DNA of 64,000 nt from Escherichia coli (GTDB taxonomy: Bacteria > Pseudomonadota > Gammaproteobacteria > Enterobacterales > Enterobacteriaceae), in the NCBI RefSeq assembly GCF_024223415.1, contig NZ_CP100500.1; one strand, given 5' to 3'. The notes beneath the pieces are model-generated. The model had not been told where the DNA came from and did not search any database. It was given only the letters and a program-made list of their open reading frames with translations. How positions within the stretch are numbered: position 1 is the stretch's first letter; every line of letters begins with the position of its first letter. The position numbers and the translations under genes were made by a program. This document shows, in pieces, positions 9,140 to 46,153 of the stretch.

Positions 9140-9326
9140 ATATCCACGATTAACATACTGTTTGTTATTGGTTTTGTTGCGATTTCTTGTAAACAGCGCC
9201 CCCACTAAAGCCCCCATAAAAAATCGCTTTGGTTTTGTGAGGGTTATCACGAAAAATCAATGTTAAGTGGAGGGCTTCGTTATGTGTGGAGTTATGACCC
9301 TGGCCCAAAATCAGTGCAGTGCTAAA

Positions 9327-10200: not shown

Positions 10201-10426
10201 CCAGACTCAGATCAGCCACCAGTTTCTTCAGCCGCTGATTTTCATCCTCCAGTTGCCGCAGACGCCGCAGTTCCGTCACGCCCAGACCGGCAAATTTCTT
10301 CTTCCAGTTGTAAAAGGTGGCCTCAGAAATACCCATCTTTCTGCAGACTTCCCCGACGCGGGTGCCGGTTTCGGCCTGTTTCAGCGCAAACGCAATCTGT
10401 TCTTCGGTATAACGGGTCTTTTTCAT
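10160..10426 (-). CDS. IS3-family transposase OrfA (HTH, leucine-zipper region)
   Basis: MKKTRYTEEQIAFALKQAETGTRVGEVCRKMGISEATFYNWKKKF... typical IS3-family OrfA. Confidence 0.85.
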   Translation of the reverse strand: MKKTRYTEEQIAFALKQAETGTRVGEVCRKMGISEATFYNWKKKFAGLGVTELRRLRQLEDENQRLKKLVADLSLDKEMLQEVLKQKF

Positions 10427-10554
10427 GGTAATAAGCCTCTCTGTGAGCAGGAAGAAAGACCGGAGACTTCAGTTTAGACTGGTACTGTTTTCAGGGGGGA
10501 GATCAGTTAGGTTCACACATAACGAATTCTAAAAACACCGCCCTAAATTTTCCG

Positions 10555-17498: not shown

Positions 17499-17509
17499 TC
17501 TTCTTCCCC

Positions 17510-19708: not shown

Positions 19709-21021
19709 AATCTGAAGTCGGCCAGACCGTCCTCATCGGCATCTTCTGCCGATGTTATTTCATCCATATCACTGGGTTTTTCTTCCGCGATCGCGACACC
19801 GGCGATTAACTGTGACCACTGAATGGATGGGTTTTGTTCCAGCACGGCCAGCATATCCAGGAAGGCTTTAATCGTGTTTCGTGGCGTACGGAAATAGGCA
19901 TCGCCAATAGTGTTGCTACAGTGGCGTAAAAATGCCGTCAGAGCATCATCAGGAACCAGATACTTATCCGCATCGCCGCCGGAATAAACGTGACGAAGGT
20001 TTTTCAACAGAATATAGAGTTCTTCCGGCGTCAGGCTGGCTAAGTGCAGGGAAGGGGACGAATAATCAATGACACCAGCCCGCTGAGCGAAGCTATTTTC
20101 CGCCAGTCGGGACTGGAGCGCTTCGTAGCTGTACAACCCCTTGCGCGGATCGAACAGGAATTCTGGCGTACCGCCAAGTAAAAAACCGATATATTCAGCC
20201 GTCCCTTGCAGGCAGTCATTCAGAATACGCAGTATCTGTTCATAGTTGGCAACGCGGGCCTGAGTGTTACTGAGCTTATACAGATTGACCATCTCATCCA
20301 GATTCACCAGCAGACCCGCGTATCCGGCCTGACGGACAAACAGGCTCATCAGCTTTAGCGAATCGTAGAAAGAGGCATCAGAAATAATGGTGCGCACACC
20401 CAGATCGTTACGGGCGTCGGTTTTCGTGGTGTATTCACCTCTTAGCCAGCGGATGGCATTTGATTTCAATGTCTCATTATCCTGCTCGTGGCCCTGCCAG
20501 TAACATTCAATGACTTTGGCGAAATCGTAACCGCCAACCATATCAGACAGGGCGGCGAGCTTTTGGTGAATAATCGTCGGAACTGACACATTTGTACTTT
20601 CTGCTTCTTTTCTGGCTTCCGTGATAAAGCGCTCAACCACGCTTAATAATGCGTTTCCATCCGGCTTATTTCGGGTGGATAGATTTTTCATTAGCTCGGA
20701 GTAGAGGTTACGCGCCTGCCCACCCGTCGCGTGGATGCGCCTGTCCGGGGATAAATCGGCGCTGATTGTCACCAGCTTTTTTTCTAGCGCAATTGAGCGC
20801 ACAACGCTTAAAAAGAATGTCTTACCTGAGCCATATTCCCCAATAATCAGCCGGAGTCCTGCGCCGCCATCAGCGATACGCTCAATATCCTGATACAGCG
20901 CTTTTATTTCGTTGACCCGGCCAACCTGAATGTGCTGAATACCAATTTTAGGCGTAACACCTGACTTCAGTGACTGAATAATAGCGTCTCTTTCTTTGAG
21001 ACGAATACGAATGCCAGACAT
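19705..21021 (-). CDS. P-loop ATPase (438 aa); SngB-like
   Basis: Walker A GEYGSGKTF, Walker B-like LLVNLDEM; 3 nt after stop of TerB-domain gene. Confidence 0.6.
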   Translation of the reverse strand: MSGIRIRLKERDAIIQSLKSGVTPKIGIQHIQVGRVNEIKALYQDIERIADGGAGLRLIIGEYGSGKTFFLSVVRSIALEKKLVTISADLSPDRRIHATGGQARNLYSELMKNLSTRNKPDGNALLSVVERFITEARKEAESTNVSVPTIIHQKLAALSDMVGGYDFAKVIECYWQGHEQDNETLKSNAIRWLRGEYTTKTDARNDLGVRTIISDASFYDSLKLMSLFVRQAGYAGLLVNLDEMVNLYKLSNTQARVANYEQILRILNDCLQGTAEYIGFLLGGTPEFLFDPRKGLYSYEALQSRLAENSFAQRAGVIDYSSPSLHLASLTPEELYILLKNLRHVYSGGDADKYLVPDDALTAFLRHCSNTIGDAYFRTPRNTIKAFLDMLAVLEQNPSIQWSQLIAGVAIAEEKPSDMDEITSAEDADEDGLADFRL

Positions 21022-21024
21022 AAA

Positions 21025-23352: not shown

Positions 23353-23535
23353 TCCTTGCCCTTAATCGCTGATAACGCTTCCCGGCATTGTTCTACGATA
23401 GGCAAAGGCGGTAAGCATAAAACTGGAAGAGAGATCGTAAAATGATACCGCGAATGGGCTAGAGTACAAGCATAAAAACCCTATTATTCAAAAGGATTAT
23501 GTCATATGGCTGGGGGAGCAATTGGCAGGACCAGG

Positions 23536-24603
23536 TTATACCTCTGAATCACGCATAAAACGATTGATTTCATCTTGCGCATGACGAAGACGATCGGCAA
23601 TGTCAGCAAATCTGTCAGGCTGATGAAAGAACATTCCCCCTTCCACCGCCGTTTGATGATCCCCGGCGATCGCTGCGAACCGTTCAGCATCGTCAGGCAA
23701 CAGTTGCAGGTTTCCGACAATCACCTGAGTAAAATCCACACCCGGCACAGACCAGCGACGTTGCTTCATCTCGACCACATTGCGCATGGCTTCCAGCGTT
23801 TCATAGGGGCTGGCAAAATGATTACTCAGCAGACAATCCACATCATACCAATGGCGTGCCAGTCGGGCCGGATTTGGCGCTTTGGTTTGCGTGCAGAACT
23901 GGTGCAGCGCCGTCAGCTTTTCCCAAAGAATATAACCGGTGTCATAAGCGTTTACGGTCGCGGTGGGTAACTGGAGTGTATCCATGCCTGCGATCCCGGA
24001 CAGATAGCTTACAACAGGCATCAGATCGGTTGGCTTGCCACGATTTCGTCCGCCAAATTCCAGCAGAATATGATCGCGCTGATAGGCCATACTGTCTTCT
24101 TTCACCCGTGGGAAATAGATATCGACTTTTTCGCCACCACTGTCGGGTTCCATTTTTGCTTCAAGGCCCGGAATTTCATAAGTCTGAAAGCGTTGGTTTA
24201 ACCGTTCTGCCAGCGCGTTTGTCCATTCTGTTAAGCGCTCTTGCTGCTGCTCTCTGAACCGGCGATTCTGGCTGTTATTTAGCGTGCTTTGCTCCCATGC
24301 CTGCTGTTCTTCCTCTTCTGAGTGGCCTGCCAGATCGGCCCAGTGAACAGAAAGATCGATATCTTCAGAAAAACGCTCAATCACGTTCCAGCATTTGCTT
24401 AACGCCGTTCCACCTTTAAACGCGACAGATAAACCTCCCAGCAGCTCCTCATTAAAAAGTAACCGAAGGATCTCCGTTACCCAGAGATCCTTTTCCAGAA
24501 AGCTGGCTCCCAGCCCGGAGGGATGCTGCTGCGCCGCGTAAGAGAGGATTTCCTGAAGCTCGCGACGTTGTGATGCGCTCCGGTAGTAATCAAAAATGTC
24601 CAT
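23536..24603 (-). CDS. AbiEii-family nucleotidyltransferase toxin (ORF track start 24642; ATG at 24603 overlaps antitoxin stop)
   Basis: FKGGTALSKCWNVIERFSEDIDLSV motif characteristic of AbiEii/DUF1814 nucleotidyltransferases; ATGA overlap with upstream gene. Confidence 0.78.
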   Translation of the reverse strand: MDIFDYYRSASQRRELQEILSYAAQQHPSGLGASFLEKDLWVTEILRLLFNEELLGGLSVAFKGGTALSKCWNVIERFSEDIDLSVHWADLAGHSEEEEQQAWEQSTLNNSQNRRFREQQQERLTEWTNALAERLNQRFQTYEIPGLEAKMEPDSGGEKVDIYFPRVKEDSMAYQRDHILLEFGGRNRGKPTDLMPVVSYLSGIAGMDTLQLPTATVNAYDTGYILWEKLTALHQFCTQTKAPNPARLARHWYDVDCLLSNHFASPYETLEAMRNVVEMKQRRWSVPGVDFTQVIVGNLQLLPDDAERFAAIAGDHQTAVEGGMFFHQPDRFADIADRLRHAQDEINRFMRDSEV

Positions 24604-25262
24604 CAGAGCGCCTTTTGCAACGTTATCAGCTGCGAGCGCCACGCGTGAAGCGCAGGCTCATTCATCAACTTTCCGGCAATCTGCCGTGCTTTAGCGGACG
24701 GGATGCTCAGCCGATGAAAAGCATTCTTCAGCGTTTCCAATGGGGTATGTTGCTGATCCAGACTCAGCAAACCGCGCATCAGCTCTCCTTCAGGCCGGTT
24801 CAGCCAACGTAACCGACTTGCTGATTTATGCTGGATCCGTACCCGCTCATTGCCGACGCGGAATTCTCGCGTAGGGCCGTTTGACCAGTAGATGCGTTTA
24901 ACTGGCGCCTGCGTTTGCAGCCCCAGCCGGTAAGCGGCTTCCAGCCCCTGAAGGGTGATTTTGTAACCACGCTCTTTTGCCCATGCGGCGGCAACGGCAT
25001 TGGCGCTGGCAACAACGTTAACAGAGGGGATGTTTTTCAACGGCTTTGGCCGGGAGTAGAAACCGCGTTCAACCCGGACCAGCAGGCCTTCTTTGACCAG
25101 ACGGCTCATTGCCTGTTGTACCGACGCACGGCTTCCCAGCGAGTAAAACCCGCTGATGGAAAAGGGGATGCCACGCTTCATGCGGTGAACCCGCTGGCGG
25201 GCCAGAGCGGCAACAGACATTGATTCTCCTGTACTGACGTTTTCATTGATATGTATTTTCAT
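24603..25262 (-). CDS. AbiEi-like antitoxin / transcriptional regulator (type IV TA)
   Basis: 219 aa immediately upstream of and overlapping AbiEii; N-terminal wHTH-like region ...SRLVKEGLLVRVERGFYSRP. Confidence 0.65.
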   Translation of the reverse strand: MKIHINENVSTGESMSVAALARQRVHRMKRGIPFSISGFYSLGSRASVQQAMSRLVKEGLLVRVERGFYSRPKPLKNIPSVNVVASANAVAAAWAKERGYKITLQGLEAAYRLGLQTQAPVKRIYWSNGPTREFRVGNERVRIQHKSASRLRWLNRPEGELMRGLLSLDQQHTPLETLKNAFHRLSIPSAKARQIAGKLMNEPALHAWRSQLITLQKAL

Positions 25263-25418
25263 TATATCCCTTGTGTAGCAAGGAGTCTAACCTAAAAAAT
25301 GTCAGTAATATTCATTCTATGACAATGTTTAAAATGGCAGATATCAGTGAGGTAGCTTGCTGTAGGAAATTCCGACGATAAAATACCCACATACAGCAGG
25401 CGGTGATAAGGATATAGC

Positions 25419-27614
25419 ATGAGCATTCTCTCCATCCACGGCGTTCGCAGTTATCAGGGCGAAAGGCCAGTGGAGTTCGACTTGAGTAAGTATGTCACTC
25501 TTATCTATGGACAAAACGGCTCAGGAAAATCAACCGTTTCTGGTTACTTTTATAAGCATGGTCGTCCAGATTACAGCCAGTGCAGCCTGCGACCTCCACT
25601 GGATATGAACTACCTGGTGTTTAATCAGGAGTATGTAGACGATATTTTCAGCCAACCTTCTCAGCCGGGCATTTTCACTTTAAATAGTGAAAATGCAGAA
25701 ATTAAAACTGAAATAGATGCTCTGGAAGCGGAGAGTAAAGTTTTGTTTGCCCGGCGTGATGCTTTGGACGTGCAAAAACGCGACGTTGAGGGCATGGAAG
25801 AAAGTATTAAAAATGGCTCCGCAAAACAGATTTATAGTTCTACCGCAGAAATCAGAAAAACAGATTTATGGGATTTGATGTCTGGAACTAAACAGACCGA
25901 CAAACTTTTTCAGACCATCCTTGAACACACTGAAGTCGAAGATACTTCGACGCAGGAATTAACCGAAGAACTACACCGACTTGAAGCCAGTAAAGGCAAC
26001 CCTTACGCTTTGCTCGAAGCATTGCCAGCATCCCCTTTGAATGACAATGATATTGCGCTATTGATGCAACCTCTTATTCCAGCAGGTGATAGCCGTCTTG
26101 CTGCCGCAATTAACCAATTGGGCAACATTGACTGGGTGAGGAATGGACAGCAGTGGCTGAGTGATGACATTTGCCCATTTTGTCAAACGCCGATAGATGC
26201 CCGGCAACTTCAACAGGAAATCACTGCCCTTTTTGATACCTCATGGGAAGCTGCGATGGACCAGTTGCGGGAACTTCAGGCGCGATATCAATTCTGGCAC
26301 GATAAACCCGAACATATGCGGCAGTTAATAAAAACGTGTCCGTTAGTTGATCAGGAACATCCTGTTTATCTCTATCTACTTGAACTGGAGCAGGCGTATC
26401 AAAGAAATAAATTGCATATCGATGAGAAATTGACATCACCCTCTGCGTCGATTGCTGTTGAGGATCTTTCTGCTCTGGCTGGCAATGTCTCTGTGCAGAT
26501 AGCCAGTATTAATACAATAATAAGCGAACATAACCGAAAGGCTGAAAATTATCAGACTGAACGGGTTAGACTGAAACAGAGACTACTCAGTCATATCCGA
26601 AAACTGGCTACCGATACGATAATTAACCATGATGAACAACTAGCAGAACTTGCTGAAAAATTGGCAAAATTAACGGTGTCTCGGGATGAAATTACGGCCC
26701 AGCTTGATACGCTGAACGCAATTATTCGCGGTAAATCCAGCCTGATCGTCAATACGCAGGAAACGATTGAACGTATTAATCACAGCTTGGATAGCCTTGG
26801 AATCACTGGATTCCGCATTGCTCCCTATGACGATCGGGATGATTATCGTCTGGTGAGGGAAGGTGAGAACAGCGATACGCCTGTTTTTAGTAGTCTGAGT
26901 GAAGGGGAAAAGACGCTGATTGCTTTTCTCTATTTTCTGGAGACTTGCACAGGGAGAAAAAGTCGTGATGACAATGACCAACGAAAACGTTTAATTGTCA
27001 TTGATGATCCTATATCCAGCCTGTCGCAAAACTATGTTTTTGAAATAGCATCGTTGATCCAGCATCAGGTTATACGTGCCAGAATTGGTGAGAAAGTGAT
27101 TATTCTGACGCACAGCCTGTTTTTCTTTCAGGAGTTACTGCTTTCTGCGGAACGGAAGAAAAGGGCAGCGGGTTCTTGCCCACCAGAATGGACGCTTTAT
27201 CGGGTATCCAAATCCTTACATAGTTCTGCTTCCCTTGTTTCCGAAAAAGAATTACTGAACGACTATCAGGCACTCTGGTATGTCTTACGCCACGCCCAAA
27301 AAGATGACATTGCCAGTGTGGTGATCCCAAATACGATGCGGCAAATCCTTGAATACTATTTTGGTTTTTCGGGGAAAAGTGAGACGCTTCACCGGGCGCT
27401 TGAAACACTGGCGAGCGGGCCTGAAGGTGAACCTGGTTTCCGTATATTTGCTCGTTATCTAAATCGACATTCTCACCAGGATGCCCGCAATATCTCTCTT
27501 CATGAGGGGGCTTCGGTTGAACGCTATCTTACCTGGTTTAAGAAAGTATTCGAGGCGGCAAAGGATGAAGAGCATTACACATCAATGATGGAAAAGACGA
27601 CACAAACGACCTGA
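25419..27614 (+). CDS. ABC-type (SMC/RecF-like) ATPase, candidate RloC/PrrC-like anticodon-nuclease family defence protein
   Basis: Walker A GQNGSGKST at N-terminus, Walker B/D-loop LIVIDDPISSLS and H-loop ILTHS ~500 aa later, CPFC (CxxC) in the intervening predicted coiled coil, ~170-aa C-terminal domain. Confidence 0.45.
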   Translation: MSILSIHGVRSYQGERPVEFDLSKYVTLIYGQNGSGKSTVSGYFYKHGRPDYSQCSLRPPLDMNYLVFNQEYVDDIFSQPSQPGIFTLNSENAEIKTEIDALEAESKVLFARRDALDVQKRDVEGMEESIKNGSAKQIYSSTAEIRKTDLWDLMSGTKQTDKLFQTILEHTEVEDTSTQELTEELHRLEASKGNPYALLEALPASPLNDNDIALLMQPLIPAGDSRLAAAINQLGNIDWVRNGQQWLSDDICPFCQTPIDARQLQQEITALFDTSWEAAMDQLRELQARYQFWHDKPEHMRQLIKTCPLVDQEHPVYLYLLELEQAYQRNKLHIDEKLTSPSASIAVEDLSALAGNVSVQIASINTIISEHNRKAENYQTERVRLKQRLLSHIRKLATDTIINHDEQLAELAEKLAKLTVSRDEITAQLDTLNAIIRGKSSLIVNTQETIERINHSLDSLGITGFRIAPYDDRDDYRLVREGENSDTPVFSSLSEGEKTLIAFLYFLETCTGRKSRDDNDQRKRLIVIDDPISSLSQNYVFEIASLIQHQVIRARIGEKVIILTHSLFFFQELLLSAERKKRAAGSCPPEWTLYRVSKSLHSSASLVSEKELLNDYQALWYVLRHAQKDDIASVVIPNTMRQILEYYFGFSGKSETLHRALETLASGPEGEPGFRIFARYLNRHSHQDARNISLHEGASVERYLTWFKKVFEAAKDEEHYTSMMEKTTQTT

Positions 27615-29132
27615 TTAACAACAGAAGAGGACCATCACCCCGGGATTAACCGTTAGCAGTTCGGCAAAGAGCGCATGTGCTGGCACACGTGCTCCCAGCG
27701 ACCAAAACGGAAACGCAGATACTGGTGAACCAGCACAGTTTTCTGTTTCATACCGGGCTCCTTTCTTTCGACGCCGACAAGCTGTCGGCGAGCCCCGTAC
27801 ACCTCGTACGAGCGTGACTATCGTGTAGAGGCTAAGGATCCCGGGGGATGGCTTCCGCTATCGTAGGCGATTTCATTTGATGATTCAATCTTTGCTTTGG
27901 ATAACAATTAATTGAGATGGTCGTATTTTAGTATTAGCACTGTATGTCTTAGCTATAGTGCTGCTGAAATGACCAATTCGGGAACCGTGATGGTTTCCTG
28001 GAAACTCTCTTGCTTATTTTACGATGCTGGCCGATTATCACAAAACGTTGCTTAAACGCTGATTGGATATGGTGCTTTGTGGCAGTCATTCGCTTGTCTG
28101 ACGTTGCCATGGCTTACATTTGATGTAGCCAATGTAGAAGCCGCTTGGTGAATTGTTCTATGACATGGTCTACTACTTCGTTGTGGAAAATGAAGATGCG
28201 GTACCGGGTATGTACCATTGATGGTGAGAGGCTTATCGACGAATGGACCGTACGATATTGCTTGGCTGGAAAGGTGTGTGAAGCATTGTAGATTTACATT
28301 CACAAAATCGCGAGAAAATCTACAAACAACTCTATTTCCAGAAAAATGAGTTTCCCCTTTCTGCGCCAGAAATAAAGGCGTAATCTCCCTCCTGCACTAT
28401 GTTGTCGTGGACAACTCCCTTGCTTCATGGTCTGCAAGAAGCCCCTGATTTATCAGGATGACCAGCCCTTTCTACCGGTACGACCTCCGCAATACCGGAA
28501 CGCGAAAGCGTTTGAGGCTAAGAGTACATACACATGAACGGCTCCATCGTCATCGCTTAACGGCAACAGCCTTCACCGGCTGAACGGCCTCTCTTTGCCG
28601 GAATTTTCCTGGCCCACTTATACCCTGCTGATAACCAGCGCCTTTTTACATGACGGGCTGCGGCCTGCATTGCCGAAGGCTTTGCTGCCGCGTGACCGTC
28701 ATCCTGCACCAGAGTGTTAATTTTCAGACCCTGCGCCAGACCAGGGCGTCAGTCGCTCACGCGCAGTGAGAGACTGACGCCCGCAGAAATTTCCATCTGC
28801 ACCAGTCATATCAACTGTTCCAGCCACAGGCGAGCTTCTGACGTCGCTTTTCAGCATTTATCTCAACCATTCATTCACAAAAGGAGAACATGAGCCAGTA
28901 CCGGAGGAGGACCACCAGGACGGTCCGGGGGATGACCAGCTCACGCTGGCGGCTGCTCTGAGAGCACAACCGATACCCCGCAAAACCTCAACAGCCGTCG
29001 CCCCGGCGCTCAGGTACTGCTCGCAGCCCCGACAAAAATCAGGGGCTATCGGCCTACGCGCCGGGGAAAGCTGTATCCGTTGTTTGTTGTGGTTTTGTGA
29101 AAATCAGGAGCGAGAGAAGAGGAAAACGTAAA

Positions 29133-35245: not shown

Positions 35246-36064
35246 TCAGCGCAGGCTCTCCAGCAGCGTTTCTGCCATCACCCACAATGCGCGGTTGAGC
35301 CTAATGTCCGTGTCGATGCTGTGAATGGCACGGGTGTGGATACGTTTTCCTTTAGCGCTGCGACCGGAAATCCCGCCTTTCAGCATATTCTCCTGGATGG
35401 TCTGATATGCACTCCACAGGTCCTTACCGTAATCCTCCCTGCGTCGTGGCGTCAGAATGTCGGCGGTGGTGACCGGCTGATGTTCGTCACCATAACGGTA
35501 AGTCAGTGCCGCCTGTGCCAGCGCCTGACGTGCCGGTGGCGGCAGGACCAGAGACTGCATGGCATCACGCTTTTCCTCAATCCGGTCAAAAACGCCCACT
35601 ACCTCGTAAGCCCCTTCAATGACTCTGTCCACCACATTTCCCCGGTGGGGCACACGGACTTCCCCCAGAGACTGACCGCAGACGCAGCCGTTCTGGCAGA
35701 CGAATCTGAAGTAACCCGGCAGCATCTGGTAGCTGGAGGTACCGTCATGGGAGTTGAGCAGAATAATTTCAGGGACATGTTGTCCGGTTATCTCCCCGGC
35801 CCGCCGCAGACGCAGCATGTGTCTGGTGTATCCCCGGCGGCCCGGGTCGCGCACGCGGGTCTGGCAGGCGAAGAATGGCTGAAAACCTTCCCGCTGCAGG
35901 CTTTCCAGTACGGTGATGGTGGGAATGTACGCATAGCGTTCACTGCGGGAGGTATGCCGATCTTCCCCAAAAATACTGGGTACATAGTGCATCAGTTCTT
36001 CATGTGTCAGCGGACGGTCACGGCGTATCTGGTTTACATGACCAAAACGACTTGCTAATCGCAT
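35246..36064 (-). CDS. DUF932-family protein (YfjQ/YafZ-like)
   Basis: 272 aa; position and sequence pattern typical of CP4-type islands. Confidence 0.6.
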   Translation of the reverse strand: MRLASRFGHVNQIRRDRPLTHEELMHYVPSIFGEDRHTSRSERYAYIPTITVLESLQREGFQPFFACQTRVRDPGRRGYTRHMLRLRRAGEITGQHVPEIILLNSHDGTSSYQMLPGYFRFVCQNGCVCGQSLGEVRVPHRGNVVDRVIEGAYEVVGVFDRIEEKRDAMQSLVLPPPARQALAQAALTYRYGDEHQPVTTADILTPRRREDYGKDLWSAYQTIQENMLKGGISGRSAKGKRIHTRAIHSIDTDIRLNRALWVMAETLLESLR

Positions 36065-36393
36065 GATTTGCTCCTTATGAATGAGTTAGCGGTATAAATG
36101 AAAAAGCCGCGTCTCCCGGAGAAGACGCGGCCTGACCGATGAAATGAATGACGTTTATTGTCTGAGAAGCCCTTCACTGGCGAGCCACGCATTAAGTTGT
36201 TTGCCGGCATCGTATTCAAAATTCCAGCACCGCCAGCGCAACTGACATTCAGCATTGTGGATAACCAGCCGGAAATGCGTTCCCTGGTCATTTTCGATAA
36301 ACACATTGCGATAAGCTGTTGTGATGGCAACCGCCTGCTCTCGAGAGAAAGGGCCTTCGGGCAATAAAACAGGGTGACAGTCCGACATACCGG

Positions 36394-37071
36394 CTATTTT
36401 CCGATAAATTCAACGCTGGCACCGGTGGCATTACCGTCAGCACCAACCGTGACGGTCACTTTGTCGTACGCACGGTCTTCAGGATTGAACACTTCAAACT
36501 CAACCTTATTGCCTTTTACTTCGTAAGAGCCAAAATCAGCGGTTTCTGTTGTTTCCTCGTCATATTCCCGGGCGTATGCCTGCCGGGCAGCCTGCAGGAC
36601 GGAATCTTTATTAATGGCGGGTGTCTGTTTCGGGGAAAAATCGGCAAGTGATGTGACAAATTTCGGACAGACCTTCAGCATATCACCGCGGGTGAATTCC
36701 ATTCGTACACCAAATGCCTGTAAAACGGACACATCACGCTCTGCTATGGAGTGAACGGCTTTTTTGACCATTTCCGGCGCCTGTCCGACTTCCACCTCAA
36801 CAGCCCTGAATCCTGTCTGCTGATTACACATTTGTGATGTGGGGATCAGGTTACCGTTAATATTGATACGGCTGCCCAGGAGCGTCTGTACACCATTCGG
36901 GCATCCCTGCATCAGGCCGGTAATACCAATCGTGCCATTTTTCAGCATTACCAGCGCCTGACCATCTTCCGTCATGGTCTGACACCAGCCGTTTTTGACA
37001 GCCCAGTTGCCGGCGGAGGCGGAGAATGATGCCACAGTGAACAGCAGGGGAAAAAGAATTCTGGTATTCAT
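36394..37071 (-). CDS. Hypothetical exported protein (signal peptide)
   Basis: N-terminal [20 protein letters not shown] signal-like segment; 225 aa. Confidence 0.5.
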
Positions 37072-37189
37072 GACTGACCTCTGAAATTAAAGAGCGTGTT
37101 ATTGATAATGACAGACGGTATACGGCAGTGGTTACCGTAATCCGTTGTCGTGTAAAGGTATACGGTTGCCACGGGGGACTCCGGGGCGC

Positions 37190-38074
37190 TCAGAACAGGT
37201 GATCCCACAGTGTGACCAGCAGGTGGATAATGCGGTCCCGGGTTTTGCGCAGAAGCTGTAACATCCAGGCCGGAAAACTGAAACGGGCAACGGCGTCGTC
37301 AAAACTTTTCCCGATGGTTTCACCAAAAGTCTGTTGTGCGTGTTTCCGGGCCTGTTCAGAGCGGTTTTCCCCCCGGATATGTGAATAAACCGCACTGGTT
37401 GCCTGTGGTGGCAGTGCGTGGATCATCAGCGACACAAACGCCGGAAGGTTCCAGCCGACAGGTGCGGCAACGGAGAGTACCGGAAATGATGAAGGGAACA
37501 GGGTTGCCACCCGGGCTGTCACCGTCGCCAGTGAGAGCGCCTGCTGACGGGACGGGCATTTTTCTGTGTCGTTCCATTCTTCAGCAGGAAACACGCGATC
37601 GGCATGGCTGAGAACAAACAGAAAACGCGAGGGATCTGCACCTTCATTCAGTAAAAACTGATGCATGGCAATATCAGCAGCATACGCACGTTCATCAGCC
37701 CGCAGGATCCAGATAATCAGATCCAGTTCGGGCAGTAACTGACTGTAAAGTGCCCGGTATTCCTGATCATGCTGTGGTGTTTCGCCAGTGCCGGGCAGAT
37801 CGACCAGCGTCATTCTTCGTTCACCGGGCTGAAAGGTAAGACGATGAGCCTGACGGGTGCAGCCGTTCAGCGGATGCGTGGCGCAGACACGGGACTGAAA
37901 AATGGCATTGCACAGGCTGCTTTTTCCGGCACCGGATTTACCCATAATGCCAATAACGGGTTCGTACTGAATGACGCTGCGAAGATGTTCAAGGATTTTC
38001 TGGCGAATTTCTTCAGGAAGAAAGGTCAGATGTGACTTTACGTGTGCGGAGAGGGAAGAATGGCTGAATGACAT
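37190..38074 (-). CDS. GTPase of the YeeP/YkfA/YfjP family (50S ribosome-binding GTPase-like)
   Basis: G1 motif GIMGKSGAGKSSL, DLPG switch region; first gene of the CP4-like module. Confidence 0.8.
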   Translation of the reverse strand: MSFSHSSLSAHVKSHLTFLPEEIRQKILEHLRSVIQYEPVIGIMGKSGAGKSSLCNAIFQSRVCATHPLNGCTRQAHRLTFQPGERRMTLVDLPGTGETPQHDQEYRALYSQLLPELDLIIWILRADERAYAADIAMHQFLLNEGADPSRFLFVLSHADRVFPAEEWNDTEKCPSRQQALSLATVTARVATLFPSSFPVLSVAAPVGWNLPAFVSLMIHALPPQATSAVYSHIRGENRSEQARKHAQQTFGETIGKSFDDAVARFSFPAWMLQLLRKTRDRIIHLLVTLWDHLF

Positions 38075-38174
38075 ACCGTTATCCTGTTGATTTCACTGAA
38101 CCGGATCACATTAATCCGGCCTATCAGTCAGGTAATATGGACGTGAAAATTTTTCCATTGACGGGAAGAAGAGT

Positions 38175-39323
38175 ATGGCTAAAAACAAAGGTATCTGTCG
38201 GAATAAAAAATGCAGCAATCCTGTTTCAGAATTTGATGAGGCAAATGCCCTGAGGTTATGTGATGATCATTATCAGTTATGGAAACGAAATAAAGAGAAC
38301 CGTCGGGTCAGGAATATTTGTCGTATAATCAGTAAATATGACAAAAGTCTGGACCGGGAGATATTTGACAGAGTAATAGATGCTGCAAGAAATCAAACGG
38401 GAAAGAGAATTGTTGAGGACGCAAAAATATTACATCAATTGCGCAATTCAAAGCAAGTAAGAAAAAGTCTTCATAATGGAGTACTCCGGTCACGGGAATG
38501 GCTCAATACACAGGAGTTACTGAGAAGAAAAAATATATCTGTTACAGGTGACTCATTTAAATCTTACATAAAGGATATTGTCAGATTATATTGCTATAAG
38601 TTTCTCTACAGCAGAGAATATCTTAATGAAAACGCATACAAAAAACAATATCAGAGAGTTATTAACCCCAGAGAATTTAATGTTCCGATACTTCAACTTG
38701 AAGTTGCATGGATCAATAATAATTGCCGTTCAAGTGATTCAAGCTCTGATATTATCATCCTTCCCAGGATGATAAGAAGAATGGTTGTATTTAATGATAC
38801 GAAGATAAATAAACAATTAGAGGAAATGTTGGGGGGGATAGCACGAAAAAAAGTCGCAGTAAGGAATAAAGGCGGTCTCTATACCAGAATAAAAAAAGAA
38901 AATGATTTTCGTTCTATGGATAGATTTATGGTGGAAATCGAAAATATCATAAGACCTGAAATATTTCCGACATCAATTTACCCGCCTTTTTCACTTTCAT
39001 TTATCGAGAGAGAATTGCCACTACTGAATCTGGCGCACTCACAGTACAAAAGAGCAATAAGTAAAAAAGTGGCGAATTCAATTTTTTATACTTTGCGAAA
39101 AACTCACGTGGCATTATGGCTGCATCTTGAAATGTTTGCTCTTGTGGCATTCATCAAACTGTATACAGGAAAAGGGTTTGAATTCATGAAAAACATGTGT
39201 GTATTTATAGATTATGATAAAGGGATAATAAAATCCACGCATGAAGAACTGCTGAGTGAAATTAAGTGTAACATTCAGTTGAATTTAAAGGTGAATCCTG
39301 ATAATTTTCCTGAATTAATATAA
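38175..39323 (+). CDS. Hypothetical lysine-rich protein in very AT-rich DNA; N-terminal Cys/His cluster
   Basis: 382-aa ORF, N-terminus MAKNKGICRNKKCSNP...LCDDHYQLW; SD-like ggaag upstream; codon usage clearly foreign. Confidence 0.5.
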   Translation: MAKNKGICRNKKCSNPVSEFDEANALRLCDDHYQLWKRNKENRRVRNICRIISKYDKSLDREIFDRVIDAARNQTGKRIVEDAKILHQLRNSKQVRKSLHNGVLRSREWLNTQELLRRKNISVTGDSFKSYIKDIVRLYCYKFLYSREYLNENAYKKQYQRVINPREFNVPILQLEVAWINNNCRSSDSSSDIIILPRMIRRMVVFNDTKINKQLEEMLGGIARKKVAVRNKGGLYTRIKKENDFRSMDRFMVEIENIIRPEIFPTSIYPPFSLSFIERELPLLNLAHSQYKRAISKKVANSIFYTLRKTHVALWLHLEMFALVAFIKLYTGKGFEFMKNMCVFIDYDKGIIKSTHEELLSEIKCNIQLNLKVNPDNFPELI

Positions 39324-39904
39324 ATATACAATTCATGCTTTAGTAAAAATATATTGTTGTATGATGTTCAGGATGATGGTTTTAAATGGTGTTTATGATG
39401 TGAAAATATTAAATTTATATTACATTTTAATTATCGACAAAAAACACATAAAGAAATCTAAAGGGAATGAGCGTCAAATGAGCTGATATAGCGCCAGTTT
39501 GGTATGGTCATGTGATTTGATGATTAAAGCTTACGGATAATAACACTCCTCTGTGAGCCATATAAATGAGCATGCCATAATCGTCAGTTCAGAGATAAAA
39601 CTGACTGAATGATCTTATGTTATAGTAAGCAGTGTTTACCGGATACGATGACTTATCTCTCTCACATCATATGGATTCACTTTCATGGGGTAAAGCGATG
39701 GGACTACAGACGCTGATTATGATGGTTTGCTGTAAAGTTAGCACAAGTTTTTGCTGTACAGAATACGGAGTAAGAAAAATAATTCCAGAGTAAATCTGCT
39801 CTGCTTTTGAACAGAAAAGATTCATGCTTACCGTGAAAAACTGAAACCAACATTCAGTCTGCATGGATGTCTTAAGATGTTGAGAATGTCGGATATGGTA
39901 TTAT

Positions 39905-40060
39905 ATACACCTTTTCCATTAGGTCCTTTTATGTTTTCATTAAGTCGTTTTGTATGTATTCCTCCAGTGATTCATTAGTGCCTGTTTACGCATTTACACA
40001 CTTTTCCCATTAATCTCCTTTAAATGTGTTTCATTACGCATTGCTGTACACATTTTTGAA
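39905..40060. repeat. Two imperfect direct copies of a ~55-60-bp AT-rich unit
   Basis: acaccttttccattaggtccttttatgttttcattaagtcgttttgtatgtattcc vs acacacttttcccattaatctcctttaaatgtgtttcattacgcattgctgtacacattttt. Confidence 0.4.
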
Positions 40061-40981
40061 CTGATACACATCCAAGTTAGTAAACCTGTCAGTTCTGATT
40101 TTACGTTAACTAAATCAGTTTAATGCTGCTGTAAAACAATCCTTCCTGTTTAAGCAATCAATCTGCTATTCGATTTTACTGATGTGACGTTTAACCTTTC
40201 CTGAGCTTTGGTTGTTTGTGGTTTTTGGTTTGTGTTTCGACGTTAAGCTGAGAAAAGTATCTTTACGCTAAATCAACCCGAACTTTCCTGAGGTGATCTG
40301 ACGTTCTTTTCGATGTGCTTACGACGATTCTGTTAAACGACTTTCTGGATGTTTTGATAACAATCAGATTGAGGCATTAACGATTCCTGACGTTTTGCTT
40401 TTTCATGTAAGGTCATTGTTTTCGTCATGATGTGGTTTTTCTTCTTGCATTGCGAAAGTGTGATGATTGGTTTTGGTTTTTTGATTCAGATGAGATTTAC
40501 GTTATCGATGGTTAATCGTTTTTATGGTGAGTAGTGAAACGTAACATTTTCGGGATGAGAAAATCGATTCTGATGGTGATGGGGATGATCGTGTTACGGC
40601 GTTATCTGTAAACAGGTTTTAAACGTGTCATTCGCATTCGTGATTGAGTTGTGTGATTAAGCTGTAGGTTTTGGCGTTGTTGTTGATTTGCATTGCCAGG
40701 AAGCGTTCTGGTTGCGTTTCTGGTGTTTTGTTCGAATGTTCTGTGGATCCTTTTCCCTTCAGGCTTTTCTCGTCGTCCATGTCGTTTTTAAATCCATTCA
40801 TGCTGTTGTTGCGTGTTTTGCTGCTGTGTGCAGGATTATCTTTTCGTTCCGGGATGGTTTGTTCCGTTTCAATCACTCTTAATCAGAGAGTTGTAGCATT
40901 GCTTAATGACATGATGCCGTAAAGTTTTACCGCGGTGATTAATGATGTGAAGTCAATCCAAATCAACGGAGATCTCTCATC

Positions 40982-41713
40982 ATGAATCAACCAATACACA
41001 ATGCTTACTGGTTATCCCGTTTTGACAGCCTTCTCGACAGTGCCCTGTCGCAGCACCGTGCCGTCTCGTTAATCCGGGTGGATTTACGTTTCCCTGAGTA
41101 TATGCCTGTCACCATCATGGATCCCGATCCGGATTCAGCGGTGATTTCTCGTTTTTTCGAATCCCTGAAAGCCAAAATCCAGGCTTACCAGCGGAAAAAA
41201 CGACGTGCCAACAAGCGTGTGCGTGCAACCACTCTGCGTTATTTCTGGTGTCGGGAGTTTGGCAAGGAAAAAGGCAGGAAACATTATCACGTGATATTGC
41301 TGCTCAACAAAGATACCTGGTGCTCGCCAGGGGATTTCAGCGAACCATCTTCGCTGGCGACGATGATCCTGGAGGCATGGTGCAGCGCCCTGCATCTTGA
41401 GGCCTGGCAAGGCGATGGCCTGGTCCATTTTTCCAGGTGGACGCCTTCCCGTAAACCAGCATCGTCTGATGCTCGCCCTTCTTCCGATGACACGCCTTTG
41501 TCGGGTGGATGTTCTGATACCAGGAAGGCTTCAGAAAAAAAGCCGGGTGAAGCCGCTGTTCTCTGGATCAAGCGTGGTGATGTGGAAGCGCTGCAGAAAG
41601 CCCGGAACAGAGCCAGTTATCTCGTGAAATATGAGACGAAGCAGCATGACGGTTCCGGGCAACGTAATTATGGTTGCAGTCGTGGGCCGGGGCGTCTGCT
41701 GGATGGCAGGTGA
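40982..41713 (+). CDS. YagK/YfjJ-family protein (inovirus Gp2-like)
   Basis: 243 aa; ...SLIRVDLRFPEY...KHYHVILLLNKD... pattern recalled from CP4-element yagK/yfjJ genes. Confidence 0.55.
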   Translation: MNQPIHNAYWLSRFDSLLDSALSQHRAVSLIRVDLRFPEYMPVTIMDPDPDSAVISRFFESLKAKIQAYQRKKRRANKRVRATTLRYFWCREFGKEKGRKHYHVILLLNKDTWCSPGDFSEPSSLATMILEAWCSALHLEAWQGDGLVHFSRWTPSRKPASSDARPSSDDTPLSGGCSDTRKASEKKPGEAAVLWIKRGDVEALQKARNRASYLVKYETKQHDGSGQRNYGCSRGPGRLLDGR

Positions 41714-42069
41714 GCCCTGTAAAACGACATCCGGTGCCTGAGCTTATGCTACAGGACGTTGGCTGACGCCCTTAGCTCGTTTTCTGAAAAAGTCGTCCTG
41801 AAGTCATGCAACGGTATTTTTCTCTGCTTTCGCTCCTGGAAACACTCCGTCGGTAAAACCTTACTGTCCTGCTTAATGATGTGAACCGAAGTCAACGGAG
41901 ATCATTCATTCTGAACCTGCATCCGGTGTTCTGTCCCTTGTCGGTTACCTGATCTTCCCGTTCTGCCGCGGTTTTTCACTTATTCCATCAACCCCATACG
42001 CAAGCCATAACACGTCAGCGCATCCACGGGCAGGACGCGTTGTGGGCTGCGTATAACGGAACATATCTT

Positions 42070-42642
42070 ATGAATGCTATCCCTTATTTCGACTATAGCA
42101 TGGCGCCCTTCTGGCCATCTTATCAGAACAAAATCATCGGCGTTCTCAACCGTGTGTTGCGCGAGCAGTCCTGCTCCCGAATACGGCGGATCCTGCTTCG
42201 TCTGCCGGGGGAACATGGCAACATCTTCAGCGACAGAAAAACCTGGTTCGGTATGGCCTTTATCGAAACCGTCAGTGCGCTGATGAATGCAACACCCGGA
42301 CGTGACCTCTGCTGGCTCCTGACTCGTCATCCTGAAAAACCGGAATACCACGTGGTGCTGTGCGTCAGACAGGAGTATTTCGACGGCCCTGAACTGGATC
42401 GGCTGATTCTGGATGCCTGGAGCAACGTACTGGGCTTCGCGTCACCGGGTGAAGCGGCACCGTACCAGAAACAGATAACCCGGGATGTGGTGCTGGACAG
42501 TTGTTCACCGGACTGCGAAGAGAGACTCAAAGAGCTGATATGGGCGTTCAGTGATTTCGCCCGCGATCATCGTGGTGTGCGCGATCCGGAAGCCCGTTAC
42601 CTCGCCGGTAATCCCTGGTATCCCGTAGCAGGCCAGCTCTGA
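42070..42642 (+). CDS. Second YagK/YfjJ-family paralog (ORF track start 42040 is TTG; ATG 42070 preferred)
   Basis: Starts MNAIPYFDY... parallel to MNQPIHNAY... of the first paralog; ...RILLRLPGEHG...EYHVVLCVRQEY... Confidence 0.5.
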   Translation: MNAIPYFDYSMAPFWPSYQNKIIGVLNRVLREQSCSRIRRILLRLPGEHGNIFSDRKTWFGMAFIETVSALMNATPGRDLCWLLTRHPEKPEYHVVLCVRQEYFDGPELDRLILDAWSNVLGFASPGEAAPYQKQITRDVVLDSCSPDCEERLKELIWAFSDFARDHRGVRDPEARYLAGNPWYPVAGQL

Positions 42643-42710
42643 AAGCTCAGCTCAGCAGATTCACCCGCATTTGCCCAACATTCATAAATCTCACAGAGGA
42701 CATTCTGACC

Positions 42711-42947
42711 ATGTTGACCTCAATGACAGGTCACGACAGCGTATTGCTGCGTGCCGACGATCCCCTGATCGACATGAACTACATCACCAGCTTCACTGGT
42801 ATGACCGACAAATGGTTTTACAAGCTGATCAGTGAAGGCCATTTCCCTAAACCCATCAAACTGGGGCGCAGCAGCCGCTGGTACAAAAGTGAAGTGGAGC
42901 AGTGGATGCAGCAACGAATCGAGGCATCACGAGGGGCAGCAGCATGA
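42711..42947 (+). CDS. alpA: AlpA-family prophage regulatory protein (HTH)
   Basis: 78 aa; ...LIDMNYITSFTGMTDKWFYKLISEGHFPKPIKLGRSSRWYKSEVEQWM typical AlpA. Confidence 0.8.
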   Translation: MLTSMTGHDSVLLRADDPLIDMNYITSFTGMTDKWFYKLISEGHFPKPIKLGRSSRWYKSEVEQWMQQRIEASRGAAA

Positions 42948-43060
42948 AACGTGTTGTAATGCCGGTACGCTGGCAATGTGCAAAATACCAGCGTTGGTAT
43001 TGTGGAAGCCGGCCCTGTCCCTGGTGCTGGCGACACTCCCGCTCATCTTTCTGCTGACAC
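42944..43060 (+). CDS. Candidate 38-codon Cys/Trp-rich small ORF translationally coupled to alpA
   Basis: ATG overlaps alpA stop (ATGA); translation MKRVVMPVRWQCAKYQRWYCGSRPCPWCWRHSRSSFC; below ORF-track size cutoff. Confidence 0.3.
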
Positions 43061-44882
43061 CCTCTGGTCAGCCAGCGGACTATCGTCCTTTCCTGACCGA
43101 TTCGTCATTCCATTCTTATTGATTATAACTGGCATTACACCGGTGCCGGCGTGCTTTTCTGTAGATCTGCACCGGTTTAACAAAATTCGACAAGGTTTGA
43201 AGGAGTATTCTGTGCAAATAAGCGAGGCCCTAATTTCAGAACCGGGGAAAATCCAGCGTTTTGTTCAGCAGGCGGTGGACCACTAGCCGCGTCTGCTGGC
43301 AGTCCACTTCACGCTTGATTCGGCTGAAGGGAATATTGACGAGGGGCAGATTCATGCATTCTGTACTGCCTTTTACCGACAGGTGCACGAGCGTATTACT
43401 GAACGTAATCACACGGCCAGCCCATCCTCGCCGGTGGTATTACGCTGGTTGCGGGAACAACATGGAGGAGCAACAATACGATGCCTGTTGCTGTTCAGCC
43501 AGGAGCTTTTCTGCCATCCGCGAGCCAGTGTGACAGTTGATGAAGAATGTTCACAACTGGTGGATTTACTACAACAGACTTGGCAGGTGATAAGCGCTGG
43601 CGGACAATGCCGGGTGGAAAAGCGTTTTCAGGTCGTCCGGGGTGATACATCTGGCCAGTATGTTGCGTTAAAAACAGTCGCATTGTCTCTGGGGTTACCG
43701 GTTGTGATCGCCATTACCCATCGTCCGGTACAGCGCTGTACATTGATTACAGCTCAGTGAATCAGCGCAGTTGTGCAGTCAACGAGGTTTTCTGGCTTTT
43801 CGTCGGTCATTCAGCATCATTAAACGGGTCTCTGCCTCTTTCTGTTCCTGTGGTGTCACTTCCCCGCACGGCTGACCGTTCAGGTTGTAACGGGCGCCAC
43901 CTGCTATTAACGCACGGTAATAGCGCGGAGACTGCACATAAGACGCCACTGCTGCATGTAATGTACCAGCGCCAAACGCCAGTTCTCGGATGGCGATATC
44001 CTGTATCAGGTCGTCAGGTATCCCCACTTTAAGTGGTTTTGTTTTTTTCCCGGTTGAATGACTCAGGCCAGAGTTCCACAAGACGAATAATGCGCTTACG
44101 GTTTTTGCTCTGGCGTTTTGTCATGTCGCCACGGTGTTTTATCAGCAGGTTTCTGTTTATCGTTCAACTGTGGTATCTGGTCACCGGCCTTCATTTTGTA
44201 TGCTGTGTCCGTTTTATTCTGCAGCGGCGTTGCCGGTGATTTACTGAAAATACCCTGCGGTTTACGGTTAATGGTCAGAGTTACCATCAATTTTGTTACC
44301 TCGCGCTGTCAATGGAAGTAGTACCTCATCCGATATCTGAAAATGTTTTCCGGTGGATGTTACAGCGAATTTCATGTAAGACATGTTGTTGTCGGTATTG
44401 TTCAGTACTGTGCGTTGTGAGCGTATTCGTTATCAGACAGAGGGGCAGGGAACAAACGTCAGAGGTTAAGGATATCCGGGAACAAATGGCGTAAACGGAC
44501 ATCTCAGTGCCTGAGAAACAGTACAGGTCAGGCCATCATGGCCTGCAAACAGAGCCCTGGCGACCCCGTGGCCGAAAACGAAACAATAACCCGCGCGCAG
44601 TGCGAGGAATCCGGATGTGAAGCAATCAGCAGGTAATATTAATGGCAGGACCAGCAGGTTCTTTAAACAAACGAACATGCTGTAATTGATATTTTGCTTA
44701 TTGTATTTTCTTTTTAGTTATTAAATTAATTTATTTACGAAAAATTTTCTGCAGATACAGGATGGGAATTCAGGGTGTCATCACGCCTTATGATGACACC
44801 CTTCCCCTGGTTGTGGAAAACCGAAGGATATATCAGGTTCAGCAACAAAATCAGTGAGCTGAAAGATACCAGTCCCCCAGCT

Positions 44883-45902
44883 TCAGCAGCTTTCACGTAA
44901 ACATAAACAGGGCTCAATGAATATCTGATTGCTCCAGTTACCTTCTTTAATTCGTTCCAGCAAAACATTTCCTGCTTCCAGACCAATTTTCCTGTGAGGA
45001 ACGGCCATTGTTGTTAATGATGGTTGGCAAACTTTGCTGACGTCACTGTCACCAAATCCTACTACGGCGAGCTCGTCTGGAACTTTGATCCGTCTTCGTT
45101 GACATTCATAGAGAACACCGCAGGCTAACTCATCTGACACACATACCAGGGCATCCAGTTCCGGCCATGCGAGCAAAAATTCCGGTAGTTGTGATGCTCC
45201 GGTGGAAAAAACAGGTGGCAGAGCAGCGTTAATAACACGGTTGGGAGACATATGATGGCGTAACATAGCTTTATACCATCCCTGTAAATGCTGCTGAAAG
45301 ATCCACTGTTCCTGGTTAGCGCATAGCAAACCGATATTCTGATAACCACGTTGTACCAGCATATCCGTCAGCTCGAACATTGCTGCAACATTATCAATAC
45401 CAATGTTGATATCTATCGGATCAGTACGAATGGCACCGATTTCTATAACAGGAATCGAGGCATTTTTGAGCAAGTGACGCACGGTACTATTATGCTCAAC
45501 ACTAAGCAAAATTGCTGCAGCGATATTAGAAGCCAGCAGGGTTTCCAGCAGTTTTTCTTCTTGTTCCAGACGATGGCGTGACTCAGCCAGGATTATTTGA
45601 TACCCCGCTGGTTGTAGCACATGTTGCAGCCCGGCAAACATTTCCGTGCATCCCGCTTCAGCCAGGTTTGGCACGACCATTGCGATCGTGTGTGAAGATG
45701 CCGATGCCAGTGCGCTTGCAGTGAGGTTGGGCATATACCCTAATTCATTAACTGCGGCTTCAATCTTCTCCCGCAATTTATCTGAAACTTGTTCGGGAGT
45801 GCGTAACGCTCTGGATACAGTCATTGTGCCAACTCCCGCGAGTTGCGCGACATCAGCAATAGTGACTTTACCTGTACTACGACGTTTTCGGGTTATTGCC
45901 AT
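44883..45902 (-). CDS. LacI-family transcriptional regulator
   Basis: N-terminal HTH VTIADVAQLAGVGTMTVSRAL plus periplasmic-binding-like sugar-binding domain; divergent from the PTS operon. Confidence 0.8.
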   Translation of the reverse strand: MAITRKRRSTGKVTIADVAQLAGVGTMTVSRALRTPEQVSDKLREKIEAAVNELGYMPNLTASALASASSHTIAMVVPNLAEAGCTEMFAGLQHVLQPAGYQIILAESRHRLEQEEKLLETLLASNIAAAILLSVEHNSTVRHLLKNASIPVIEIGAIRTDPIDINIGIDNVAAMFELTDMLVQRGYQNIGLLCANQEQWIFQQHLQGWYKAMLRHHMSPNRVINAALPPVFSTGASQLPEFLLAWPELDALVCVSDELACGVLYECQRRRIKVPDELAVVGFGDSDVSKVCQPSLTTMAVPHRKIGLEAGNVLLERIKEGNWSNQIFIEPCLCLRESC

Positions 45903-46153
45903 ACAAAATCCTGCTCAGCGACTACATATGGAGATCTTTTATTACTTATCATCAACGGCTTCCTGCACTGCCAGTAGCAGAGTATACCTCTTAATATCTG
46001 CCATAAGTCTGGATTTAATCAGTGAAATCTATTTTGATAGCGCTATCACAAATTCGAACAATACCTCCTGATAGCGCTATCTTTGTGATATTGATCGCAG
46101 ATATACCGTCGTTACTTGAATACATTCTGGTCATATAAATAAGAAATTAGGGG

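Follow-up and report, generated by a model that had tools for sequence, protein, structure and literature searches.

What keeps a strong excess of G and T on one strand of a gene-free stretch of bacterial DNA, and does that stretch serve the gene that follows it? The question is raised by positions 40200-40980 of a 64,000-nucleotide piece of Escherichia coli DNA (contig NZ_CP100500.1; the whole piece is called the window below), which lie directly upstream of a gene of the YagK/YfjJ or 'inovirus Gp2' family (here Gp2). An earlier note on this DNA had pointed out the skew and had offered a long structured 5' leader, a replication-associated region or a decayed gene as explanations. The segment is real, conserved, widespread and non-coding. 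Our tentative reading, to which we give a little less than an even chance, is that it forms the body of an untranslated leader or control region of about 1.07 kb, which would belong to the operon Gp2-ORF200-AlpA of CP4-like islands. We infer both the transcription of the region and its control of the operon from the sequence. Annotation was taken from the E. coli chromosome NZ_CM196105.1, part of which is identical to the window (window position 1 corresponds to position 3,169,670 of the record).

Extent, spread and coding capacity of the segment

The dominance of G and T on the plus strand was confirmed by a sliding-window check. Positions 40200-40980 had a G+T fraction of 0.645 (A 0.200, C 0.155, G 0.246, T 0.399). 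Across the 64 kb, the 780-bp windows had a mean of 0.516 with a standard deviation of 0.030, which puts the segment at z = 4.4. The highest 780-bp stretch of the 64 kb started at 40161 (0.655), in agreement with the earlier statement that the skew is unmatched elsewhere in the window. The next peaks, at 47381 (0.612) and 52541 (0.600), fell mostly into coding sequence (YadA-like and MurR/RpiR genes). At a finer scale the G+T-rich segment extended from about 40150 to 40900. It was non-coding and, on the Gp2 strand, poor in C and rich in T. T exceeded A from about 39850 and G exceeded C from about 40150, and both excesses ended at about 40900. The A+T content of the segment was 60%.

Conservation within CP4-type islands was examined by BLASTN and was found to be extensive: the segment is present in 1,877 of the 5,426 complete E. 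coli genomes, at 3,263 places in total, nearly all of them chromosomal and up to 8 in one genome. Full-length copies were present in 1,351 genomes, with 73-100% identity and a length of 757-870 bp. After 44 metagenome contigs had been added, the sample comprised 39 distinct full-length copies, and in all 39 the G+T fraction was between 0.61 and 0.645. Wider sampling by a scan of genome contigs gave two loci only, and a pattern scan of viral contigs gave none. In all 12 annotated or fetched loci the segment was located directly upstream of the Gp2 gene, with a variable cargo slot to its left. In every lineage, homology among copies with different cargo had its sharp onset at 39761-39777. This places the conserved non-coding unit at 39776-40981 (1.2 kb), with the G+T-rich segment as its right-hand (3') two-thirds. 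One to eight copies of this unannotated unit are present in roughly one in three complete E. coli genomes. Loci L005 (4325-5470) and L011 (4543-5705) have an altered segment: in one lineage its middle is replaced by about 1.15 kb with a 176-aa minus-strand open reading frame (ORF) without a Pfam match, and in another it is interrupted by an IS3 element.

The statement that the segment contains no ORF had to be qualified. Mechanically called ORFs do exist, for example one of 82 aa on the minus strand, but none is conserved in frame among the copies. Open frames of at least 40 codons varied in frame, start and end among the 39 distinct copies, and up to three minus-strand frames were open simultaneously. 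Open frames are expected on this strand because it is poor in T and every stop codon starts with T. Codon periodicity of the variable sites was flat over the phases in every sub-segment (p = 0.25-0.86), while the Gp2 coding sequence of the same loci, which served as the positive control, gave phase counts of 55/34/82 (p = 4e-5). Six-frame translations of 39324-40981 matched no Pfam family at E<=1. A decayed or frameshifted gene was therefore rejected, given the lack of a conserved frame, of periodicity and of a Pfam match; the best ORF had only same-locus relatives in E. coli.

This best ORF (40628-40876, minus strand) is annotated by PGAP as a 'hypothetical protein' of 82 aa, WP_000573215.1, and belongs to a cluster of 242 E. 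coli 'hypothetical proteins'. Its phase counts were 34/34/38 (p = 0.86), its ends and frame were not conserved, and it matched no Pfam or PHROG family. Among 5.8 billion proteins its relatives formed 30 clusters only, all from E. coli, 50-101 aa long and free of Pfam domains. It was judged to be a spurious call, and the 242-member family is probably an artefact of ORF calling on a strand of T-poor composition.

A minus-strand product could also take the form of an A/C-rich antisense RNA, ended by Rho or by an imperfect hairpin at 39795-39815. That hairpin is part of the left border of the unit (39776-39879), reads as a weak minus-strand terminator with its T-run on the minus strand, and was found in lineages with differing sequences; it was not confirmed by RNAalifold because it could not be aligned in register. 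The antisense RNA of 40150-40900 would be a good Rho substrate, because C exceeded G in 86% of its 78-nt windows and it is poorly folded (-139.5 vs -210.6 kcal/mol). Apart from this RNA and the border hairpin, the PGAP annotation itself speaks for a product of this strand. Against it stand the unconserved frame, start and end of the ORF, its missing periodicity and its relatives, which are E. coli calls only; in addition, no conserved minus-strand promoter was found. Either kind of minus-strand product, protein or RNA, is considered highly improbable.

A candidate leader of the Gp2 operon

A conserved, sigma-70-like candidate promoter was recognised on the plus strand at 39880-39908, consisting of TTGAGA and then TGnTA(C/T)TAT / TATATA(C), and pointing towards Gp2. 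Its core, TTGAGAATGTCGG..TG.TA(C/T)TATATACAC, was near-invariant in 33 distinct copies, while the flanks were variable. The predicted start lies at about 39911-39916, approximately 1.07 kb upstream of Gp2, and the T skew begins at this candidate promoter. The promoter module was present in nearly as many genomes as the G+T-rich segment (1,861 vs 1,877). A generic promoter scan had missed it because of the hexamer rule of that scan. Reading of the sequence nearer to the gene, in the variable stretch 40860-40918 and in the invariant proximal block, revealed no convincing promoter.

At the other end of the unit, the element at 40915-40992 (plus strand) was invariant, with a pairwise distance of 0.03. 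It contains a hairpin (40934-40992) that pairs both the Shine-Dalgarno sequence GGAG (40968-71) and the AUG of Gp2 (40982). The minimum free energy of the proximal 86 nt was -23.1 kcal/mol compared with -13.4 +/- 2.7 kcal/mol for shuffled sequences (z = -3.61), and none of 200 shuffles was as good. No covariation was seen in this hairpin, and the few variants break single pairs. A hairpin that buries the Shine-Dalgarno sequence and the start codon would have no meaning unless the transcript started upstream of 40934.

Taken as a leader, the unit would function as follows. Transcription would start at the conserved promoter and would cross a T/C-rich repeat domain, a possible operator or Rho-loading stretch. 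It would then pass through the G+T-rich body with two moderately conserved blocks, in one of which a hairpin followed by a U-tract could attenuate it. The leader would end in the invariant hairpin, which would occlude the ribosome-binding site and start codon of Gp2, so that the module would be silent by default. Of the long structured 5' leader proposed before, the length thus received indirect support from the candidate promoter 1.07 kb upstream and from the proximal hairpin, whereas the structure was not found in the G+T-rich body.

The first domain of the putative leader (39909-40099, plus strand) contains in the window copy a degenerate TTTTC(C)ATTA array, in which the motif occurs five times; CATTA occurred 6 times vs 1.1 expected. 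Most other copies have at this place, just 3' of the promoter, a tandem array of 12-13-bp TATTTTACTAAG units with a 36-bp super-unit. TRF reported 5.4 x 36 bp in locus L006 (3709-3893) and 5.7 x 13 bp in locus L010 (3779-3856). The mean number of TATTTTACTAAG matches per copy was 3.4 on the forward strand compared with 0.43 expected, and 0.19 on the reverse strand; the window copy had none at up to 3 mismatches. The arrays comprise 0 to 9 units in a single orientation, the super-unit begins with ATACAC, and each 36-bp super-unit holds a TGnTATACA that resembles an extended -10 element.

The composition typical of Rho utilisation (rut) sites, that is C-rich, G-poor and weakly folded, was present in the predicted sense RNA of 39912-40150, where C exceeded G in 99% of the 78-nt windows, and in the antisense RNA of 40150-40900. 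It was absent from the sense RNA of the G+T-rich body (12%). The first 256 nt past the putative start folded with z = -0.54. Several-hundred-nucleotide untranslated leaders with more C than G near the 5' end (here 39912-40150) are also found among the Rho- or small RNA (sRNA)-controlled leaders of enterobacterial genes such as rpoS and mgtA. Unlike these, the E. coli unit has no known riboswitch, leader peptide or sRNA site (Rfam was negative), and most of it has more G than C, which disfavours Rho.

Constraint within the unit was uneven. The mean pairwise distance was 0.144 for the whole region, 0.2-0.37 for the variable parts and 0.03 for the last 60 bp, and three blocks were 2-5 times more conserved than the synonymous-like average. 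Block A (40100-40205) had a column identity of 0.79-0.94 and pairwise distances of 0.09-0.16. In block B (40460-40580), with distances of 0.05-0.12, the palindrome ATCGAT occurs twice at a spacing of 60 bp and is invariant. Block C (40639-40758; distance 0.07-0.10 in 40639-40740) contains a hairpin at 40695-40724 (-11.9 kcal/mol) followed by GUUUUGUU; this hairpin and its U-tail (40695-40735) are a candidate attenuator or terminator. All three blocks were read on the plus strand. In the stem CCAGGAA/UUUCUGG of block C, 94.9% of the cells were paired across 14 variants. RNAalifold and explicit pair counts were compatible with the predicted pairs in blocks B and C but gave no compensatory changes, in blocks that vary too little for a firm negative.

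The structure prediction that the earlier note had suggested revealed no excess of folding in the G+T-rich body. The fold energy of 40150-40990 relative to dinucleotide shuffles had a z of +0.43 for plus-strand RNA, +0.27 for minus-strand RNA and +0.41 for DNA. A globally structured leader or single-stranded DNA (ssDNA) origin was rejected with these values (z ~ +0.3 to +0.4). A known RNA family was likewise rejected, as Rfam gave no match at E<=1 in 36000-46000. In the whole window only EFASI (28890-29023, 112.7 bits) and isrN (10025-10161, 72.2 bits) scored above the Rfam gathering threshold. Curved DNA was rejected because the T-tracts lack a 10-11-bp periodicity, and iterons in the G+T-rich body because the enriched words GCATTGC, TTCCTGA and ACGTT were not conserved among the copies.

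The predicted layout would resemble that of the AlpA-dependent antitermination units of Pseudomonas aeruginosa (PalpB, PPA0807), which have a promoter with a conserved -35/-10 spacer, a terminator-bearing leader and a regulator of the Phage_AlpA family (PMC7969949, PMC9371919). That AlpA-family proteins can act on such arrangements speaks for a leader. In P. aeruginosa AlpA is an antiterminator that loads between -35 and -10, so that RNA polymerase passes the leader terminator (PMC7969949, PMC9371919). Unlike in these units, AlpA is encoded within the E. coli operon itself, the leader would be about 1 kb long rather than short, and the candidate terminator is weak. Of the AlpA element GGGACG-N5-GGTA (PMC7969949), the E. 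coli -35/-10 spacer contains GGTA only; the upstream hexamer, TTGAGA, matched at 2 of 6 positions.

Probable upkeep of the skew and possible other roles of the segment

The substitutions among the copies were analysed by polarising rare alleles by majority rule, which gave 126 events. Changes from keto to amino bases numbered 68 and the reverse 58, with an implied equilibrium G+T fraction of 0.60 compared with 0.64 observed. The rates were higher for C>T than for G>A (.286 vs.229), lower for T>C than for A>G (.086 vs.149) and higher for G>T than for C>A (.118 vs.067). All three differences point the way that one would expect if the strand were single-stranded or non-template more often.

Insertions added to the skew. 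The G+T fraction was 0.68-0.72 in indel-variable columns vs 0.637 in fixed ones, and C made up 0.6% of the minority insertions. A hexamer repeat (GGTGAT)n at 40571-40590 (plus strand) varied in unit number: the window copy has about two units, the longest five or six. With such C-poor insertions and a varying (GGTGAT)n, slippage of G+T-only simple sequence feeds the skew. Another sign of growth by slippage was a 17-bp unit, TTTAGTAAATCTTTACG, which occurs three times in tandem in the block A equivalent of locus L038 (metagenome contig OJJN01000555.1) and singly in the other copies. The run ggttgtttgtggtttttgg at 40208-40228, which had been quoted as an example of the skew, is a lineage-specific plus-strand insertion of G and T only (TTGGTTGTTTGTGGTTTTTGG). 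As it is present in only 3 of the 39 distinct copies it is not typical of the element, but it is typical of the way in which the element grows. Strand-asymmetric substitution and G+T-only slippage thus seem to maintain the skew, rather than a coding or folding signal. At 40571-40590 some lineages carry G-runs, such as GGGGCGGGGGGGG, instead of the hexamer.

Several results weigh against a leader. The copies differ by at most about 25%, so that most of the skew they have in common is inherited and cannot be counted as independent evidence of selection. The non-coding divergence Knc of the region (median 0.149) equalled the synonymous divergence dS of Gp2 (0.150) in the 33 distinct copies with intact Gp2, and because of this average most of the body may be unconstrained. 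The departure of the substitutions from a strand-symmetric process, which itself speaks for this reading, had a p of only 0.026, in a small sample polarised by majority rule. The promoter at 39880-39908 is a prediction by sequence match, and its spacing is imperfect, with 12-13 nt from the -35 hexamer to TGnTACTAT and 15-17 nt to TATATA/C. The changes in the block C hairpin were one-sided only, without double-sided compensation. A leader packed with intrinsic terminators was rejected, as 3 sites were found compared with 5.1 +/- 2.1 in composition-matched sequences. Finally, the AlpA-like protein of the window is a weak relative of the characterised AlpA proteins.

A divergence equal to dS is also what a mostly functionless remnant or slippage-grown tract would have, tolerated between a working promoter or operator and the proximal element and skewed only by mutation bias and repeat expansion. 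The many indels, the variable number of hexamer repeats, the G+T-only insertions and the absence of structure, ORF and motif periodicity are in keeping with such a tract. In this case the region would be an ordinary compositional oddity of a mostly unconstrained spacer. However, conservation in blocks B and C exceeds that of synonymous sites by a factor of 2-3, and 1351 genomes have kept the length at 757-870 bp against the deletion bias of bacteria. The substitutions, moreover, are near compositional equilibrium, not decaying. We regard this explanation as decidedly unlikely.

A further alternative is suggested by the mosaic nature of the copies. Upstream and coding divergence barely correlated (r = 0.17, 33 copies), and the copies are therefore recombinant mosaics. 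The segment might be untranscribed silencing, spacer or recombination-anchor DNA between the cargo slot and the Gp2 operon; the conserved blocks would then be protein-binding sites, and the G+T content may favour RecA pairing and cargo exchange. The homology border at 39776, which is sharp whatever the cargo, the frequent recombination to which the mosaics point, and the presence of several copies per genome agree with this, and an A+T content of 60% is typical of foreign DNA bound by H-NS. RecA reportedly prefers G+T-rich DNA, a finding attributed to Tracy and Kowalczykowski. The Chi octamer GCTGGTGG was nevertheless absent from both strands of 39850-40981, the T-tracts had no 10-11-bp phasing, and a silencer or spacer needs no strand asymmetry. 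The proximal hairpin moreover speaks for transcription of no less than the last 50 nt. On balance an untranscribed role seems rather unlikely.

The Gp2 gene, its relatives and the island

The Gp2 gene (40982-41713, plus strand) encodes a protein of the YagK/YfjJ family with HUH Rep-like features (motifs HYHVILLL and YLVKYETK). It matched PF11726 (3.6e-37), PF23343 REP_ORF2-G2P (1.9e-10) and PHROG families of replication initiation, and its dN/dS (ratio of nonsynonymous to synonymous divergence) was about 0.32. No solved structure was detectable for it by sequence. The E. coli Gp2 has an insertion of about 35 residues rich in Ser, Asp, Pro and Lys (41450-41560, residues ~158-192), which is absent from five aligned homologues. 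The second gene, ORF200 (42040-42642, plus strand), has EYHVVL where Gp2 has HYHVIL, no Pfam match, and a pairwise BLASTP match to Gp2 around the HUH motif (E = 0.003). It is probably a degenerate, possibly inactive, paralogue of Gp2. The third gene of the row (42711-42947, plus strand) encodes a helix-turn-helix (HTH) protein of the AlpA family (PF05930, 2e-10), with a weak match to PDB 8c3t_A.

The nature of Gp2 directs attention to the replication-associated region mentioned before. Gp2 might bind the direct repeats by its own promoter and nick the T-rich plus strand at a rolling-circle origin or oriT-like site, and the skew would then mark the displaced ssDNA strand. The HUH and Y..K motifs and the matches to replication-initiator families favour such a role, as does the plus-strand excess of C>T and G>T, which fits single-strand exposure. 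In the Ff phages, too, gene II is directly preceded by a long region without genes, and the likeness extends to the T-rich sense strand of the Ff (M13/f1) intergenic region and to the type of HUH initiator that follows it. The Ff region is densely hairpinned, with signals for packaging and the (-) and (+) origins, whereas the E. coli unit folds no better than shuffled sequences, has no sequence similarity to Ff and gave no evidence of a nick site.

Direct repeats that bind Rep are known from plasmids of the pMV158 type (the 'bind' locus) and from geminivirus iterons. The same-orientation 12-13-bp repeats that follow the promoter in most E. coli copies are reminiscent of them, and would on this account be binding sites near the promoter of an HUH Rep gene. 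Unlike those repeats, they lie 0.9-1 kb from the gene, number 0 to 9 and are not joined by a nick hairpin; in the window copy the array is degenerate, and it lies outside the G+T-rich body. Inverted repeats in the region were short and unconserved, with no conserved nick-site hairpin among them, and the DNA showed no excess of structure (z = +0.41). A displaced strand would also predict an island-wide skew, but the skew is limited to about 1 kb.

The distant relatives of the locus gave a divided picture. A Klebsiella plasmid whose Gp2 has 42% identity contains, in this order, a minus-strand gene, a gap of about 1.5-1.7 kb in which annotated genes are few or absent, Gp2 and AlpA, and this gap includes a 700-bp stretch with a G+T fraction of 0.61-0.67. 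This gene-poor gap upstream of Gp2 is a further point in favour of an origin, and a Pseudomonas plasmid has a 400-bp stretch of 0.62-0.71 between alpA and Gp2. Neither stretch has sequence homology to the E. coli unit, and both peaks are just about 2-3 standard deviations over the local background. A comparable upstream segment was absent from all 17 loci of the YfjI-YfjJ type, which counts against an origin for Gp2. With 17 loci lacking it and two plasmid loci weak, the idea that the YagK/YfjJ family in general has a G+T-rich segment upstream was rejected; on thin evidence, the trait may recur in one Gp2 subfamily. In the Klebsiella plasmid locus L060, two genes of the Gp2 type flank AlpA.

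Autonomous replication of the island is not known, and Gp2-like island proteins are called proteins of function unknown or are listed among the core genes of intY/alpA islands (PMC6174562, 10.1101/2024.08.29.610337). Taking all of this together, an origin or transfer site for Gp2 is unlikely. A combination of leader and origin was also considered. Rightward transcription would generate R-loops and long-lived ssDNA as a substrate of Gp2 for rolling-circle replication or transfer of the island, and the skew would be both cause, since a G-rich RNA gives a stable hybrid, and scar, the exposed strand having suffered C>T and G>T damage. Such a transcription-activated origin is very unlikely.

The leader or control region of the Gp2 operon is thus the reading that we retain, with the reservations given above. 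Genes for Gp2 and AlpA-family proteins form the core of a large class of islands whose mechanism of mobility is unknown (10.1101/2024.08.29.610337, PMC6174562). If the segment is a control region or an origin, it offers a handle for testing how CP4-like islands become active, are copied or move, and it would also help to explain the exchange of the cargo slot directly to its left.

In the window the segment sits inside a CP4-like genomic island that adjoins yicL/setC. To its left, on the minus strand, the island core encodes a GTPase, an HTH regulator, a DUF932 protein, an antirestriction protein, a RadC-like JAB protein, YeeU/CbtA and a DUF4942 protein. The plus strand carries a cargo gene, a 1,658-bp stretch without a believable gene (39324-40981), the 'inovirus Gp2 family' gene, the 200-aa ORF and the gene of the AlpA-family HTH protein, in this order. 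The cargo gene (38175-39323; 382 aa, low G+C) had no Pfam, PADLOC or PHROG match and occupies a slot that is variable among the copies. This slot (38075-39775 and its equivalents in loci L002-L011) is flanked by the GTPase gene and the border at 39776, and its limits are sharp. In different copies it holds unrelated cargo of 382/407 aa, 376 aa, 316+262 aa, 339 aa or 327+267 aa, all without Pfam, PADLOC or PHROG matches.

No integrase and, according to ARAGORN, no tRNA was found within the 64-kb window. To the right of the AlpA module a frameshifted gene of the ProQ/FinO family (43714-44222, minus strand) is followed by an IS1 remnant and other gene fragments (44600-45900). At 8248-25831 a 10.5-kb inverse autotransporter gene (iatC) adjoins eilA and genes for type III secretion translocon, tip and chaperone proteins, according to the annotation of NZ_CM196105.1.

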